The notes beneath the pieces are model-generated. The model was not told the DNA's origin and made no database searches. It saw nothing but the letters and a program-made list of their open reading frames with translations. A DNA stretch of 38,067 bases from a virus. Its lineage: Duplodnaviria > Heunggongvirae > Uroviricota > Caudoviricetes. Positions 256 through 6,736 of this stretch are shown here, piece after piece. Positions within the stretch are counted from its first letter, which is position 1, and each line of letters begins with the position of its first letter. The stretch lies in IMG/VR virus record IMGVR_UViG_2541047915_000012; one strand, 5' to 3'. Position numbers and translations under genes: made by a program.

Positions 256-3201
256 TTAGTGCTTCCCTTCTATTAAGTCTAACCTAGCTTTTATTCTTTC
301 TATTTCTCTGCGCTGCCATGCTGCCTCGATATAGAATAAGAGATCAGGTCTGACCCCCCATCTAGATCCTGCTGGCGTTATTTCAACGCGCTCAATGATG
401 TCTTCCATTACCATCACTGGATTATCATCCTCATCAACAATGATGCTCCCGTCATTATCAGTCAGCGGCATTTCCCTTTGGCCAGTAATGACGTCATCAT
501 ATACTGCGGGATAATCGTCATAGCAAAGAAAGGCATAGCGGCATGTTGTGCTTTCTTCTTCCATGAGTCCGTGAGAAATAAGAACATCACGAAGTTGCTG
601 CGCGATTACACCATGATGTATCCTCGCCCCTTCTTCCCCCTTTATAGCGACAGCGTTCAGCCATTTATAAGCGATATACCTGACGTCACCCCAGGCATCC
701 AGCAATGTTTCGTCAGGAGAGACCGGCTCTGTCTTTAATGTTCCGTCACTGGTAACCACAGGATTGGAGCCAAGATAAACTATCGAGAACCTGTTTCCCG
801 GACCACCAAGAGCATTTACATTATCAAGATAAGGTTTAACATCTCCGTTCTCAAAAAGATGTTCGAGTGCGTTATATACCGCGCGACGTGGAGTACTGCT
901 TCTGGAACCATGCAACGTTATCATTGCACCATCTGCTGAAGACGTTGTTTCACCGCCGCTAACGATTAATCTCTGAGCGGTAACATCATCAGACGGTACT
1001 TTCTTCGCAATAATGGCGTAATTACCCTCAAGTTTGACTTCCGCGCGAACTTGTCCTGATGTACCTGCATGGACAGTCAGTGACTGGACGGCAACATCAT
1101 CTGTGAAATCAACGGGTACAGGAACCGTCCTCACGCCTGACGTCGACATAAAAGTAGGAAGCGTTCTGTTAGGAGTGGCTCCGTAGACAAAATCCCTTGA
1201 AACAAATTCTTCCTGTTTAATTTTCACCCTGAAACAATACAAATCAGCCGGGTGACCATCGTGAACATAAGGATATTTTCTGTTGTTATCCCCTATGCTC
1301 CATGGGTTTAGAAAGTCTTCCCCACCGAAAATGTAGTACAGCCAGTTGTCTTTGATACAAACTGAACCAACACCAACCGCAGAGTTAACTATTCCGCCCT
1401 GATAAATCTGATCAGTAACATTAACCCACTCTACATTATCCAGACTCCACTCATTGACGTTAACTCTGGTCATAAATGTTCTTGGATAGTTTCCTGCATA
1501 ACGGTTATCAGGTTCTCCTCCTTCCCACTCACCAAATGCGCGCTCACTGCCAAAAATAATCAGCTCATCGCCAACTTTGGCAAAAGGAAGGTTTGAGTGA
1601 TGAACATTATTTGGGAAGCGAAGAGAATTCCATGATGTACCTAAATCAGAGCTTCTGTGCAATGAACTACCGGGTTGAGTACTTAATGTCCCCCTGGTCG
1701 TCAGATACAGAATGCCATCATAATATTTTACACATGGCTCAGATGCATTCGCCTCATATTCTGCAGGTATGCGTCTGCGAACAAAGCTACCAGGAGAACC
1801 GAAAGCATCAGAGAAATAGAGTATCCCAAGCTCGCGTGGACCAATATCACCATTATGGTAGCCAACAGCAAAACTGTTATCGCTAATCGTCGCAAAACTG
1901 TGAATCTCAGTAACAGGAGTGCTTCCGTCAACAAAAGAAGGAATAGTTCCAAGACTGGTTTTTCTCCATGGTGACGAGTGAAATGATGTACCAAAACTCC
2001 AGTATCTACCCTCGTTATTCTGATCCACATCCTGGGTATTTTGCGTCGTAACTGTAAAAGTATTTTTATCAATAACAGTAGTCACCGTCATATTCCCGGT
2101 AACACCTGTAACACCAGAGTTTGAGAAGTTGACAAAATCACCAGCAAATAATCCGTGATCAGTAATGCGAATATAAGCGACTTGCTGATTTGCTGCTTTC
2201 GTTATACCACCATAAACGCGAAGGCTGCGACTCATTGGGCGATCCCACAACTCTGCAACCTGCAGTTTATTTCCGCTCACGGTCCGCGTCTCAATTACAG
2301 CAAAAAGGCGATTTCTGACAACCCCCATACTCATGCAGTGATAGTTAACTGTGGGATAGTTTTCATGTAAATCTGTAAGCCATTCCGGCGTTGTCCAGGT
2401 CTTCCCGTCATCTCCTGAGCGAACCCATGCAACATGGAGGTTATTTACACCATGGCGGTCTCCAGCCATAAAAGGCGCATAGATGACATTGTCATATACA
2501 AACGTTTTATCCTGCGTCCAGGCGTTGTACCACGGTGTATCTGTAATTTTAAATAACTCTCCCTGGATAAAATCTTCAGAAACATAAAAAAGAGGCTGAC
2601 CCGGTATTCTCTCAAATAAAAAACGAGCATTTTTAAATCGACTGACATCTGGAAGAGTTGATACTTTAAAAGTAAGCCCTCGCCCATCTATCTTTTCACC
2701 ACCTGTTGCAACAGAAAGTAATTCTGATAGAGCTGATGTATCATCATGAACACCATCACCAATAGCCCCCCAACCTCTTACATCATAACTGTCTCTCCAT
2801 CTTGCTATCTGAAGTTTTGGGTATTTATTCGCTCCATCTGGGTCTTCTAATTGCTGCCGTAGTTGATCAGGATCATACTTCAGCACATTCTGGAAATAGA
2901 ACTGCTGTACGCCATACGCATCGTACACAGCCATAGAATGGCCTTGCACAGTTACGAACTTGGCAATCCGTCCGTTATATACAGGGTAACCAGCAGCGTT
3001 AATGATGATTGGTTGCGAAACAGGAACGTGAGAGCCGTCTTCGTTCTCTACATAAACCTGAATCCGGTTTTCAGGATTTACCGGGTCAGTGTCAATTTTA
3101 CCGATATAAATTTTGCCATTGGCTACGGCTTTAAAAGAACGCGCCATAGTGAAGAGTTGCGAAGGCATCGATACAATCACATTGGCTGTAATGTCTGTCA
3201 T
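256..3201 (-). CDS. Tailspike protein, probable endo-N-acetylneuraminidase (endosialidase) with P22-type head-binding N-terminus and C-terminal intramolecular chaperone domain
   Basis: 981-aa ORF, GGAG RBS before ATG at 3201; N-terminal ~110 aa resemble P22 gp9 head-binding domain (MTDITANV...[19 protein letters not shown]...VTVQGHSMA); two sialidase Asp-box motifs SGDDGKTW and SSDLGTSW; C-terminal ~150 aa resemble autocleaving chaperone domains of endosialidases and tail fibres. Confidence 0.75.
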
Positions 3202-3301: not shown

Positions 3302-4204
3302 TCAGTAATTATGTACTGAAGGAGGTAATTCTTTATTCTTAAGTCTCATCCATGCGGAAAGATTCGTTGGTCCGTCTGGCTCATTGATATCAACATCTCG
3401 TGTGTGATTGATTAAAACGTCTCTCGCCATATCGATAATACGGGAGAACTCATAACCGCAGTCATGACATCTGCCGGAATAGTTCGATTGAATTTGTTTT
3501 AGCGCCGGATACAGTTCGCGGAATAATGCCTGTGAGCGGTTGGCATAATCCCATAGCCATACAAGGCTGTTTGCTTCTTTTGCAGAAAGCTCGTTGGTTT
3601 TCTTCTCTTGTTTGCCGATGAACTCACCTTCAAGCACTACCCTGTGGATGTACTCTACTGCTTGTGGTATCTGAGATGCATCAAGCTCTTCAATACTTTC
3701 CACATTGAAACGCTGATGAATCATTGCATAAGCTTCTGGGTACATTAGATGCTTTTTGCTGACTAGCATATTTACAGCATCACGAAGCGGAGTCCTGTCA
3801 TCAACAGATGTTTTCTTCCGTGCATTTGCTGCCTCTCCCTTTGTCCAGTAGTCATGCAGCACAGTAAAGCATTCTTCCTGGTACTGAATCAGTTTATCGC
3901 GGATGTCAGCACGAACTTTCTCAGGGTTGATGCTGAACAGCCATCCATTTAACTTCTTCAAAGGAAGGCAGAGTAGCTTACGAAGCTTACCATCAGCGGC
4001 AACCATGTTCATATGAACACAGTTGAATTTGCTAATCTGCTTCATGAGTTTTGTTTGCTGCGTTGACCAGCTCATTCCGAGGTTTTCAACGATTGGCTTC
4101 ATCGCAACATATGCAACTCCGGCAGCCATGGCGGTGATAATTTGCTGACCGTTGAATGGCACGTAAGAGGTGTTCACTGCTTCTAAAATTGCTATACTAT
4201 TCAT
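3302..4204 (-). CDS. ant: Antirepressor Ant (P22 immI type)
   Basis: 300 aa from ATG at 4204 ([21 protein letters not shown]...) with GGAG RBS; matches recalled P22 Ant length and N-terminus; tool ORF has a GTG-initiated 22-codon upstream extension judged spurious. Confidence 0.75.
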
Positions 4205-4436
4205 GTTGGTTTTTCTCCACGGATTTACCGACAACCGAAGCCCTGACTGTTCCAGCAGTTGGGGCTTCACTGTTTTGATTTCTTTGCCGCATCAAGCATC
4301 ACTTCTGAAAACGTGCGCTTGCCACTGAATACTCTTTCTCTTCTCAATTTTTCGTTCGTGCCAAATGATTCGCCATGAACAAAATTTGGTCTTAAAATGG
4401 TAATCGCAATCTCTTTGACTACTGCATCCAAGCGAA

Positions 4437-4589
4437 TCACACCGTTACCCCCTCTCTCTTCAGGCTGTCTATCAGGCGCTTGATAACCTCTGAGTTAAAC
4501 GACCTGCACTCTTCCTTTGCCCTGCTACCGATAGCATCCTTTAACGACTGCGGCATCCTTACCAAAATCTTACTTATTTCTTTCTCCAT
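4437..4589 (-). CDS. arc: Arc-like ribbon-helix-helix repressor
   Basis: 50 aa from ATG at 4589 with GGAGGG RBS; ...RSFNSEVIKRLIDSLKREG resembles P22 Arc (...RSVNSEIYQRVMESFKKEG); tool ORF starts at an upstream TTG. Confidence 0.7.
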   Translation of the reverse strand: MEKEISKILVRMPQSLKDAIGSRAKEECRSFNSEVIKRLIDSLKREGVTV

Positions 4590-4703
4590 GTTACCCTCCA
4601 CGCAAACAACTCTTTTCGAATACAAAAGATAGCAAAGTGAGTATATCTAGTCAAAATTTTTTTGCATACACTTTGCTATCAAATTGAATACCAAAGGTGT
4701 TAT
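4590..4703. promoter_or_regulatory. Divergent Pant/Pmnt control region with operator-like inverted repeats
   Basis: Between divergent arc and mnt; minus-strand -35 TTGACT (complement of 4651-4656); perfect 12-bp inverted repeat GATAGCAAAGTG (4628-4639) / CACTTTGCTATC (4669-4680) flanking it. Confidence 0.5.
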
Positions 4704-4952
4704 ATGGCAAAGGGTGTGTCAATTTCTCCAACTACGGTAAGAATCCCTGAATCTTTACGCGAGGCTCTTGCTGTCAGAGCATCAAAAAATGGTCGCTCTG
4801 TTAACTCCGAGATCGTCATGATTTTGCAAGCCGCGATTGATGAAGATAGGTCGCCAAAGTCAGTTGAGTCATTTGCTCAGCAAGAAGCTGATAAATTCAA
4901 AGAGGCGCTACTTGAGACGCTAAAGACCATGTATGCTAAGGATGAAAAATAA
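4704..4952 (+). CDS. mnt: Mnt-like repressor (Arc/MetJ family)
   Basis: 82 aa from ATG at 4704 (AGGTG RBS); ...ASKNGRSVNSEIVMILQAAI... resembles P22 Mnt (...EANGRSMNSELLQIVQDAL). Confidence 0.7.
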   Translation: MAKGVSISPTTVRIPESLREALAVRASKNGRSVNSEIVMILQAAIDEDRSPKSVESFAQQEADKFKEALLETLKTMYAKDEK

Positions 4953-5488
4953 TGCTGCACACAATTCATTTCTTATGCCCTGTTAACACTGCCACTGTTG
5001 GGCAACTTCAGAACCACTGTCTCACCGCATTATCTCAAGGCGCAACTGAATTAAATATCCATATATCAAGTCAGGGAGGGGAAACTGCTGCTGGCTTTAC
5101 TGCGTATAACTTTCTTAAGTCACTCCCTGTTACCGTTAGAACTCACAACATAAGCAATGTTGAATCCATAGCTAATATCGTTTTCCTGGCTGGCTCAGAA
5201 CGTTTCGCAAACCCATTATCAAGATTCCTGTTACATCCTCTATTATGGTGCTTTGCCTCCCCAGCCGCCGACCATGCCAGATTGAGAGAGTACGGGAAAT
5301 GCCTCGATAACGATCTTGATCGCTTCGTTGAGACGTTCAATATCGACATCGGAACCCATATTAGGTGGGCATCCCTGATAGCAGACTCGACCATTTTGGA
5401 TGCTAACAAGGCTCTTGAGCATGGCATAATTAATTCCATAAAAACTGCAAGGCTGGCATCCAATCAGGCAAACTGGTGGGTTGTTTGA
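4952..5488 (+). CDS. ClpP-like serine peptidase (Clp/crotonase fold), function unknown
   Basis: 178 aa; start overlaps mnt stop (TAATG). Alignable by eye to E. coli ClpP: IHISSQGG vs YINSPGG, ...VESIANIVFLAG vs ...AASMGAFLLTAG, SRFLLHP vs SRVMIHQP, ALEHGIINSI vs AVEYGLVDSI; candidate Ser/His/Asp triad present. Confidence 0.55.
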   Translation: MLHTIHFLCPVNTATVGQLQNHCLTALSQGATELNIHISSQGGETAAGFTAYNFLKSLPVTVRTHNISNVESIANIVFLAGSERFANPLSRFLLHPLLWCFASPAADHARLREYGKCLDNDLDRFVETFNIDIGTHIRWASLIADSTILDANKALEHGIINSIKTARLASNQANWWVV

Positions 5489-5536: not shown

Positions 5537-5986
5537 TTAGTCAAACATAGTGTTTCTAAAGTCTCTCGCATACCCTGCTAACACTCTCATTCTATTATGA
5601 TTGTTAGCAGACATGTGAGCTACAGGATGAAAAAGAGCAATCAATGAATACCTGTTCTCATCAAAAAGATTTTGTGCATAAACGAGAGCGGTATTGGATG
5701 TTTTATGCCACTGCAACTTTTGCGGTGTGCTGATATCTGTGCCATTTTTTATTGGCTCAAATTTATTTTCACCAATTGCTAAATGAAGGTGCATAAGGCC
5801 TGCATCTTCAATATCAGGAGGTCGATGATAAGAGGTGTCTCTGCCAAAATAGCTGGGCAACGTTCCCGTAGACTTGTAGATGATAAAATCATCTACAAGT
5901 GTTTGTTTTAAATCAGGAAACTCAACAAAAACCGGGGAGAAAAAATAGTCAAAACTATCCTGATTATATTCCACGGTTACTTGCAT
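5537..5986 (-). CDS. YafO-family toxin-like protein (putative ribosome-dependent mRNA interferase)
   Basis: 149 aa, ATG at 5986 with GAGGT RBS overlapping upstream stop. Blocks shared with recalled E. coli YafO: DFIIYKSTGTLPSYFGRD vs DFISYKRDGVLPDIFGRD; MHLHLA vs AHIHLA; LIALFHPVAH...NNHNRM vs LIAILKPEPH...DNNQMH; C-terminal DFR vs AFR. Confidence 0.55.
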   Translation of the reverse strand: MQVTVEYNQDSFDYFFSPVFVEFPDLKQTLVDDFIIYKSTGTLPSYFGRDTSYHRPPDIEDAGLMHLHLAIGENKFEPIKNGTDISTPQKLQWHKTSNTALVYAQNLFDENRYSLIALFHPVAHMSANNHNRMRVLAGYARDFRNTMFD

Positions 5987-5994
5987 GTTTTACC

Positions 5995-6561
5995 TCAGTG
6001 GAAGTTACCAGAGTGAAACACACGAGTCCCGTGCTCAGCAAGCGCACGCAAACCAGCCATATCTACGGAACTATCAAAAACAACCGGAACACATGAGCGT
6101 TGTTTAATAAGACTATTCAGGTTGGTTACGGCAGATCTGGCATCAGCAACAACGATATAGATATCTCTTGCGATCTCTTTAAAATCAGCAGAAGCTTCTT
6201 TGAATACCGATTTCATTGCCCCTTCAAGTCCTCTCAATTGATGCTCTATCAATCGAGACTTTTCTGGTTCAATGATAGACAACACATTGTCTACATTCTC
6301 ATCGGTAGCGTTTGCAAGAACACGATAAGCGTATTTCAGCATTCGAGACAATTCTTTAATCGAAGACACCGCCTCATGAAGCTCATCATTAGCCCGTTCA
6401 CTGCTGAATGAGGATTGATGGTAAGCGTGCTGAACGTTATCAGTAACAACCACCTCACAACTGAACGCAGAAGCTTGCTGTAATAGCAAACCTATTGCGA
6501 CTCCAGCTTTGGCAGCGTTCAAGCTAAACATTTCATCAATCCCATTAGTCTCATTGCTCAT
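5995..6561 (-). CDS. Hypothetical protein, upstream operon partner of the YafO-like gene (not recognisably YafN/RelB/Phd-like)
   Basis: 188 aa from ATG at 6561 with perfect AAGGAGG RBS 5 nt upstream; stop is 8 nt before the YafO-like ATG; tool ORF begins at an upstream TTG. Confidence 0.6.
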   Translation of the reverse strand: MSNETNGIDEMFSLNAAKAGVAIGLLLQQASAFSCEVVVTDNVQHAYHQSSFSSERANDELHEAVSSIKELSRMLKYAYRVLANATDENVDNVLSIIEPEKSRLIEHQLRGLEGAMKSVFKEASADFKEIARDIYIVVADARSAVTNLNSLIKQRSCVPVVFDSSVDMAGLRALAEHGTRVFHSGNFH

Positions 6562-6736
6562 ACAAACCTCCTTCTTATCGGAGATTATCAATAGCTATGC
6601 ATCCATTGAATACACGCTATGCGCAATAAGTTTACGTCACGTGATATCATTATGCAACCACCGTTCTATCACCGACTAACTTTACTCCCACTCCTATACA
6701 TCATCTGGTATCCTGCGCAAAACTAAGGAGGTTGGT

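Follow-up and report, generated by a model that had tools for sequence, protein, structure and literature searches.

What fills the spacer between arc and ant in this prophage, and what is the large hairpin that lies in it? In epsilon34, where the stop of arc directly adjoins the 3′ end of sar, the spacer is 68 nt long and is made up of sar alone (the same is given for P22; in both phages arc ends 4 nt from the hairpin, at a TAA in P22-type arcs), whereas in the window, as we call the whole stretch of 38,067 nucleotides analysed here, it measures 232 nt. The length given in the initial annotation holds, with the arc stop at 4437-4439 and the ant ATG at 4202-4204, both on the minus strand, leaving 4205-4436 between them. 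The window is an E. coli prophage of P22-like (Lederbergvirus) type, and the spacer falls in its immI (mnt-arc-ant) or 'ant moron' region. The studied segment shares 99.7% identity with phiv205-1 and 100% with the E. coli ATCC 11775 prophage, and the tailspike and injection genes of the window find their match in the K1 phage CUS-3. Hypervariability of the 'ant moron' among P22-like phages is already known, as described by Villafane et al. (2008; PMC2629481), and the window is another mosaic of this region. The elements that frame the spacer are the following.

Positions 3302..4204, minus strand: ant antirepressor coding sequence, 300 aa, with its ATG at 4204-4202 and the Shine-Dalgarno GGAGA at 4218-4214.
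Positions 4437..4589, minus strand: arc-like gene for a ribbon-helix-helix repressor, 50 aa (Pfam PF03869 Arc, 5.1e-12, 45.9 bits).
Positions 4626..4654, minus strand: promoter-like site TTGACT-17-TATCTT with TG before the -10, in the mnt/arc divergent region, from a consensus scan only.
Positions 4706-4954, plus strand: Mnt-like gene, divergent from arc.

The ant product matches Pfam P22_AR_N (4.3e-45) and P22_AR_C (2.3e-28) and is labeled 'phage antirepressor Ant' in RefSeq, where the arc product appears as 'Arc family DNA-binding protein'.

The hairpin belongs to a textbook antisense RNA. Its stem, described in the initial annotation as GAAGCCC pairing with GGGCTTC and enclosing an inner ACTG/CAGT, is present at 4237-4268. 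An Rfam scan of 3800-5100 detected RF00262 (sar RNA) on the plus strand with 83.9 bits (gathering score 43; E = 7.8e-18) in a match that spans model positions 1-68 of 68, and the score on the minus strand was only 16.5 bits. The parts of this RNA and its promoter are listed here.

Positions 4170..4198, plus strand: Psar promoter with the extended -10 TGcTATACT at 4190-4198, within the first ant codons, assigned from the epsilon34 feature.
Positions 4205..4271, plus strand: gene of the sar small antisense RNA, complementary to the ant leader and ribosome-binding site, assigned from Rfam RF00262, the fold and P22 sar.
Positions 4205..4232, plus strand: sar stem-loop I, with a loop complementary to the Shine-Dalgarno of ant (GGAGA, minus-strand 4214-4218), from the Rfam structure line and the minimum-free-energy fold.
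Positions 4237..4268, plus strand: sar stem-loop II, an intrinsic terminator hairpin of 14 pairs with a 4-nt loop, from the terminator scan, the Rfam alignment and the fold.
Positions 4269..4285, plus strand: T-rich sar terminator tail ACTGTTTTGATTTCTTT, the complement of the last codons (AKKSKQ and the stop) of the 57-codon frame ORF57, from the sequence and the terminator scan.

Structure prediction, the check proposed with the initial annotation, gave -32.4 kcal/mol for the 81-nt plus-strand RNA against -16.3 +/- 2.8 for shuffled sequences (z = -5.84, 0/200 as good), and the minimum-free-energy fold, which is the same as the centroid fold, consists of the two sar stem-loops. The stem is stronger on the plus strand, where 14 pairs form with the help of G-U pairs that turn into mismatches on the minus strand. 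Together with its T-rich tail it is the sole terminator-like site found by the terminator scan in 3900-5000. Over 4100-4269 the window is 98% identical to epsilon34 and 88% identical to P22. Psar and sar are annotated at the matching epsilon34 positions; the Psar stretch is identical in the alignment and carries there the feature 'promoter, located by similarity with P22 Psar'. The sar of the window is also near-identical to the P22 sar sequence printed in PMC13397905. Taken together, the Rfam match, the fold, the terminator scan and the matches to epsilon34 and P22 identify the hairpin, by homology, as stem-loop II, the terminator, of the known sar RNA; the sequence complementary to it in the ant mRNA belongs to the target of sar. 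Psar would fire on the plus strand and yield an RNA of ~68 nt with two stem-loops, ended by the large hairpin. In the immI region of P22, sar is reported to match the ant leader with perfect complementarity and to block ant translation by pairing across its Shine-Dalgarno (Liao et al. 1987; Wu et al. 1987; Schaefer and McClure 1997, cited in PMC2629481).

The sar of the window resembles that of P22 and epsilon34 (RF00262) in its position between arc and ant, in being cis-antisense to the ribosome-binding site (with its Shine-Dalgarno) and leader of ant, in its two stem-loops and in having Psar inside the 5′ end of ant. It differs in the loop of the terminator hairpin (TTCC, against TACC in P22/epsilon34 sar), in one pair of stem I (G-C where P22/epsilon34 sar has G-U) and in a more T-rich 3′ tail (ACTGTTTTGATTTCTTT vs AACTTTACGCG), the last because the tail is here the complement of ORF57 codons and not of the arc stop region. 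The exact hairpin was found again in >120 IMG/VR contigs. The initial annotation had thus been right in substance in suggesting sar-like antisense targeting, since the RNA is sar itself, but it had assigned the functional hairpin to the minus strand, when it lies on the plus strand. Its placement of the hairpin over the ant start does not agree with the geometry of the ant mRNA, on which 18 nt separate the end of the hairpin from the GGAGA Shine-Dalgarno downstream of it and 32 nt separate it from the ATG; the ribosome-binding site is covered by the smaller stem-loop at 4205-4232, not by the one at 4237-4268. We also considered an attenuator or intrinsic terminator on the ant mRNA and rejected it. 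The minus-strand hairpin is followed by GGUUGUCGG, with no U run, and no minus-strand terminator was found in the scan; with GGTTGTCGG after the hairpin on that strand, termination of the ant mRNA is impossible. The hairpin itself, as an RNA that Rfam finds, is nothing new, and the lesson it offers is the plus-strand assignment.

The ~165 nt of extra DNA in the 232-nt spacer are filled exactly, without a gap, by ORF57.

Positions 4267..4440, minus strand: ORF57, the 57-codon cassette ORF, whose GTG overlaps the arc stop (GTGA) and whose TGA overlaps the first two hairpin bases.
Positions 4448..4454, minus strand: Shine-Dalgarno-like GAGGGGG, 7 nt upstream of the ORF57 GTG, within the last arc codons (KREG), from the sequence.

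A 54-codon frame opening at a TTG with weak initiation signals had been noted at this place. The open reading frame does exist, but the TTG at 4431 is internal to it, as the likely start lies three codons earlier at the GTG of 4440-4438, and the initiation signals are better than was thought, with a good Shine-Dalgarno (GAGGGGG, 4454-4448, 7-nt spacing) and the GTGA overlap with arc, both of which are intact in all ORF57 alleles. The arc codons for KREG (window region 4440-4465) thereby double as the Shine-Dalgarno of the downstream ORF. At the other end, the last codons (AAG AAA TCA AAA CAG TGA) are the complement of the T-rich sar terminator tail and the TGA is that of TGAAGCCCC, the foot of the hairpin. 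Mononucleotide shuffles keep the frame open in only 1.2% of cases and the five other frames all contain stops. The share of purines at codon position 1 is 0.71 in ORF57, as compared with 76% in arc and 62% in ant. These coding-like signals make translation of ORF57 likely.

The frame is already catalogued, in a family without an assigned function. ORF57 is a full-length member of phrog_17642, with no difference (E = 1.3e-43, residues 2-57 on profile positions 2-57 of 57), and it is the RefSeq 'hypothetical protein' WP_000620145.1, identical to the protein of E. coli ATCC 11775. RefSeq and PHROGs share the 57-aa model, one NCBI record calls a 54-aa version, and in E. coli O104:H4 C227-11 the frame is intact although PGAP left it unannotated. 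At least 80% of the segment is present in 93/5426 complete E. coli genomes. ORF57 has been kept intact beside three or more Arc types and three or more Ant N-termini, including those of a Klebsiella aerogenes prophage, and always in the slot between arc and sar.

Homology searches returned ORF57 and little else. Among Pfam, NCBIfam and PHROGs it matched its own PHROG and no other family. A word-indexed search of 5.8 billion proteins yielded only near-identical sequences, in 10 clusters, and an exhaustive phmmer search of 1.84 billion representatives recovered the ORF57 family only, with no homologue beyond 86% identity, plus five long repeat proteins. The latter (FG-GAP-like 'DAVVVNDAGVTIRRSNGSSFGPNE' and eukaryotic 'LRPSFVRGRSF' repeats; phmmer E 1e-7 to 1e-4) were rejected as homologues, their E-values being sums of many weak repeat matches and for this reason treated as spurious. 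The GTDB species representatives gave no match to ORF57, the metagenome scan gave identical alleles only, plus two pattern-seeded chance matches in AT-rich DNA, and distant blastn against phages and plasmids gave nothing past phiv205-1. Across these searches, ORF57 is without relatives outside enterobacterial P22-like prophages. The literature searched for WP_000620145.1 and phiv205-1 contained nothing about ORF57, and AlphaFold, run on a 5-sequence alignment, returned three helices in a model of too low a quality for fold searches (pLDDT 55). A type II toxin-antitoxin pair, with a ribbon-helix-helix antitoxin and an overlapping downstream toxin, was rejected because ORF57 has no toxin homology; the ribbon-helix-helix protein is an Arc homologue in its canonical immI context.

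Among the comparative arguments for a gene, the strongest is what other prophages carry in the same place. At least nine unrelated small ORFs (57-89 aa) occupy the slot between arc and sar in other prophages, with identical NTGA start and TGAAGCCCC stop junctions; the following were located.

Locus L004, 1735-2004: 89-aa membrane/coiled-coil cassette protein (EC.P3 and S.Kent 1-2-1).
Locus L032, 963-1145: 60-aa cassette, overlapping the arc stop by NTGA and ending at TGAAGCCCC.
Locus L033, 963-1187: 74-aa cassette, with the same overlap and end.
Locus L034, 963-1184: 73-aa cassette, with the same overlap and end.
Loci L045, L061, L062, L075, L077, L086 and L097: further cassette loci in IMG/VR.

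Both junctions, the NTGA overlap with the arc stop and the TGA of TGAAGCCCC, are shared by ORF57 and by the cassettes of 60, 63, 66/67, 73, 74, 80 and 89 aa. The 60-aa cassette is a genuine C4 zinc finger of the ClpX kind (PF06689, 43 bits). The cassette proteins of 63, 66/67 and 74 aa carry CxxC (CxxC...CxxC in several); proteins of 73 and 80 aa occur as well. In every cassette other than ORF57 the start overlaps the arc stop as ATGA, with the Shine-Dalgarno motif GAGGGGG preceding each ATG; ORF57 alone starts with GTG. We took a census of the slot in 120 IMG/VR contigs carrying the exact sar hairpin, in which 48 hold a cassette (about nine kinds) and 37 have arc directly beside the hairpin; a different arc type, or none, is found in 27, and the remaining 8 are too short for classification. 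ORF57 accounts for 8 intact copies in this census against 3 remnants. In all classified cassette-bearing loci Arc ends in ...DSLK(R/K)EG plus three residues, an ending whose codons provide the Shine-Dalgarno, and the P22-type Arc (...SFKKEGRIGA) goes without a cassette.

With so many unrelated small genes at the same spot between arc and ant, the finding in the window is largely ordinary, being mostly explained by known biology: the sar hairpin and one small cassette among many. The arc-X-sar-ant layout and the diversity of its cassettes are a variant of the known immI layout, in a region whose hypervariability is well documented. In the accessible part of PMC2629481 this variability is treated as whole genes around immI, and neither there nor in the available portions of the other P22-like immI literature that was searched did we find a description of the precise slot between the arc stop and sar, with its NTGA and TGAAGCCCC junctions. 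The value of the observation is a modest one. In many prophages of E. coli, Salmonella and Klebsiella the immI operon has a slot with precise boundaries for small genes that are coupled to arc and end inside the sar terminator, and 48/85 of the classifiable IMG/VR contigs have a cassette in it.

On the available sequences, ORF57 is probably one allele of this hypervariable accessory-gene slot, translated, with a peptide that has of late been constrained weakly or not at all. The promoter-like site at 4654-4626 is probably Pant, as its position agrees with the Pmnt/Pant feature of epsilon34, and would drive arc, ORF57 and ant as one transcript. Two features, the GTGA overlap and the Shine-Dalgarno that the final codons of arc supply, would couple the translation of ORF57 to that of arc. 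Transcription from Pant would limit ORF57 to a short burst before Arc (Mnt in lysogens) shuts this promoter. The frame ends at the TGA in the foot of the sar-target hairpin, by which the geometry of P22 arc would be restored.

How much the peptide itself matters can be judged from the alleles. Six ORF57 alleles differ by 18 distinct substitutions, 13 nonsynonymous and 5 synonymous, which are spread 8/4/6 over the three codon positions. They are compatible with neutrality (p = 0.56), and an omega <= 0.2 is rejected (p < 0.01), in a comparison of low power with alleles <=6% diverged. Drift that does not spare amino acids, named in the initial annotation as evidence against a functional frame, was therefore observed, in alleles too young for it to disprove coding; the 13 to 5 ratio does not support a conserved functional peptide, and the youth of the alleles makes omega a weak test. 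Between the window and the Klebsiella prophage, ORF57 has a dS of 0.086 and an omega of 0.72, and the adjacent arc a dS of 0.97 and an omega of 0.03, with a divergence boundary ~25 nt before the arc stop. This boundary and the roughly tenfold lower synonymous divergence show that the cassette spread recently by recombination. Three IMG/VR contigs and E. coli Z0117EC0133 carry an in-frame deletion remnant of ORF57, which is 12 codons long and keeps the original start and stop (L036, near 966-997; L060 and another two IMG/VR loci). The deletion apparently took place between short direct repeats, TTGGATGC and TTGATGC, that lie at either end of ORF57. Databases also hold frameshifted or rearranged versions. 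The existence of deletion remnants suggests that the peptide, which shows no sign of constraint, may be dispensable. Substitutions that fit neutrality, together with the remnants, leave translation likely and a peptide-specific function unproven.

These same data give some room to the reading that ORF57 is a non-functional relic, a cassette in decay or else a spurious ORF that came along when recombination joined the conserved arc 3′ end and the sar hairpin. The neutral substitution pattern, the deletion and frameshift variants, the GTG where other cassettes have ATG and the occasional failure of PGAP to call the frame are all consistent with it, and a dS about ten times below that of arc would fit recent hitch-hiking. 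Against this stand a frame that chance would so rarely leave open and that has a coding-like purine bias, initiation signals preserved in every allele, and the predominance of intact copies (8 vs 3 remnants in IMG/VR; 93 E. coli genomes). We regard decay as a real possibility, albeit one that we doubt.

If instead the amino acid sequence matters, ORF57 would be a small early protein, acting in host takeover, in anti-defence or as a helper of Ant, made in the Pant burst and then shut off by Arc in the manner of Aca-controlled anti-CRISPR genes. The many unrelated small proteins in the slot speak for such a role, among them a ClpX zinc-finger domain for which an action on host ClpXP is plausible, as does the intact state of ORF57 across at least three Arc and at least three Ant backgrounds and into Klebsiella; the predicted three helices add weakly to this (pLDDT 55). 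An omega of about 0.7, with omega <= 0.2 rejected, argues against it, as do the deletion remnants, the lack of homology in Pfam, NCBIfam or the PHROG functional classes and the low confidence of the structure, so that a specific effector appears somewhat unlikely. In acr-aca anti-CRISPR loci, a strong promoter burst is combined with a small DNA-binding autorepressor in the operon and with highly variable small ORFs beside it. The likeness of arc-ORF57-ant to these loci is a works-like analogy only, in the burst, the autorepressor and the variable neighbour ORF. It differs in that Arc is upstream of the variable gene, not downstream, and that the cassette proteins here are without a demonstrated anti-defence role. 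A broader form of the idea is that the junction of arc stop and sar terminator is a dedicated exchange site for unrelated early proteins (ClpX zinc-finger mimics, a membrane protein, ORF57) under the Pant burst and Arc autorepression, an 'acr-aca-like' arsenal for host takeover or anti-defence of which ORF57 would be an uncharacterised member; we consider this unlikely. If the cassette proteins do matter, the clearest candidates being those that resemble a ClpX zinc finger, they would be made at the very start of infection together with the antirepressor, and would offer a small, easily testable set of candidate early effectors.

Another reading takes only the act of translation to be important. 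Ribosomes would be carried from arc to the foot of the sar-target hairpin, covering the 165 nt against Rho polarity or RNase attack on ant and reproducing the P22 geometry. This would account for a frame that is kept open and fills the gap exactly while its amino acids drift neutrally, and for a deletion remnant that stays in frame with start and stop kept, although an in-frame deletion arises by chance 1 in 3 times. In all 85 arc-bearing loci that were classified, at most 5 nt lie between the end of the upstream cistron and the hairpin foot, but four contigs have a frameshifted zinc-finger cassette and the cistron-end rule is hence not absolute. Also against this reading are immI variants (L081, L118 and L135, in IMG/VR) with a promoter directly upstream of the hairpin and no arc. 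On this balance a ribosome bridge is improbable. The arrangement in these three contigs, in which a TTGACA-type promoter and a palindromic operator-like sequence stand directly before the sar hairpin, would represent an arc-less variant of immI.

Least probable is that the insert acts in cis as RNA or DNA and is no gene, either as an ant leader with structure or as an internal promoter from which an antisense transcript would run into arc and mnt: conservation is no lower at synonymous than at nonsynonymous sites, the E. coli and Klebsiella alleles share an invariant 60-nt core and a promoter-like site (9-of-12) lies on the plus strand at 4370-4398, but we rate this reading low because the ORF57 part of the minus-strand RNA folds unremarkably (z = -0.82), promoter-like matches are within chance (2 found, 1.4 expected), the site is not conserved (its -10 TAAAAT is CAAAAT in the L007/O104:H4 allele) and unrelated cassettes replace the whole segment in other prophages, so that no conserved cis element is needed here.

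Some features of the neighbourhood lie outside the question of the spacer. On the mnt side, a ClpP-like serine protease gene (4952-5488, plus strand; PF00574, 2.2e-11) overlaps the mnt stop by TAATG and lies within immI, far from the head genes; its name in phiv205-1, 'head maturation protease', is probably a mis-annotation, and the gene is maybe notable beside the ClpX zinc-finger cassettes that occur in the slot of other prophages. Beyond it, on the minus strand, a 149-aa ORF at 5537-5986 is a YafO-family type II toxin according to RefSeq in the identical ATCC 11775 prophage, preceded by a hypothetical ORF of ~190 aa at 5995-6591 (minus strand), and the two could form a toxin-antitoxin or defence pair inside the ant moron. 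On the other side of ant, the DNA of the 981-aa tailspike (256-3201, minus strand) is 98.8% identical to the CUS-3 endosialidase tailspike region, which makes this a P22-like prophage specific for the K1 capsule. Just downstream of ant, on the tailspike side, both ATCC 11775 and phiv205-1 have transposase genes of insertion sequences (IS21-like ISEc12 in ATCC 11775).
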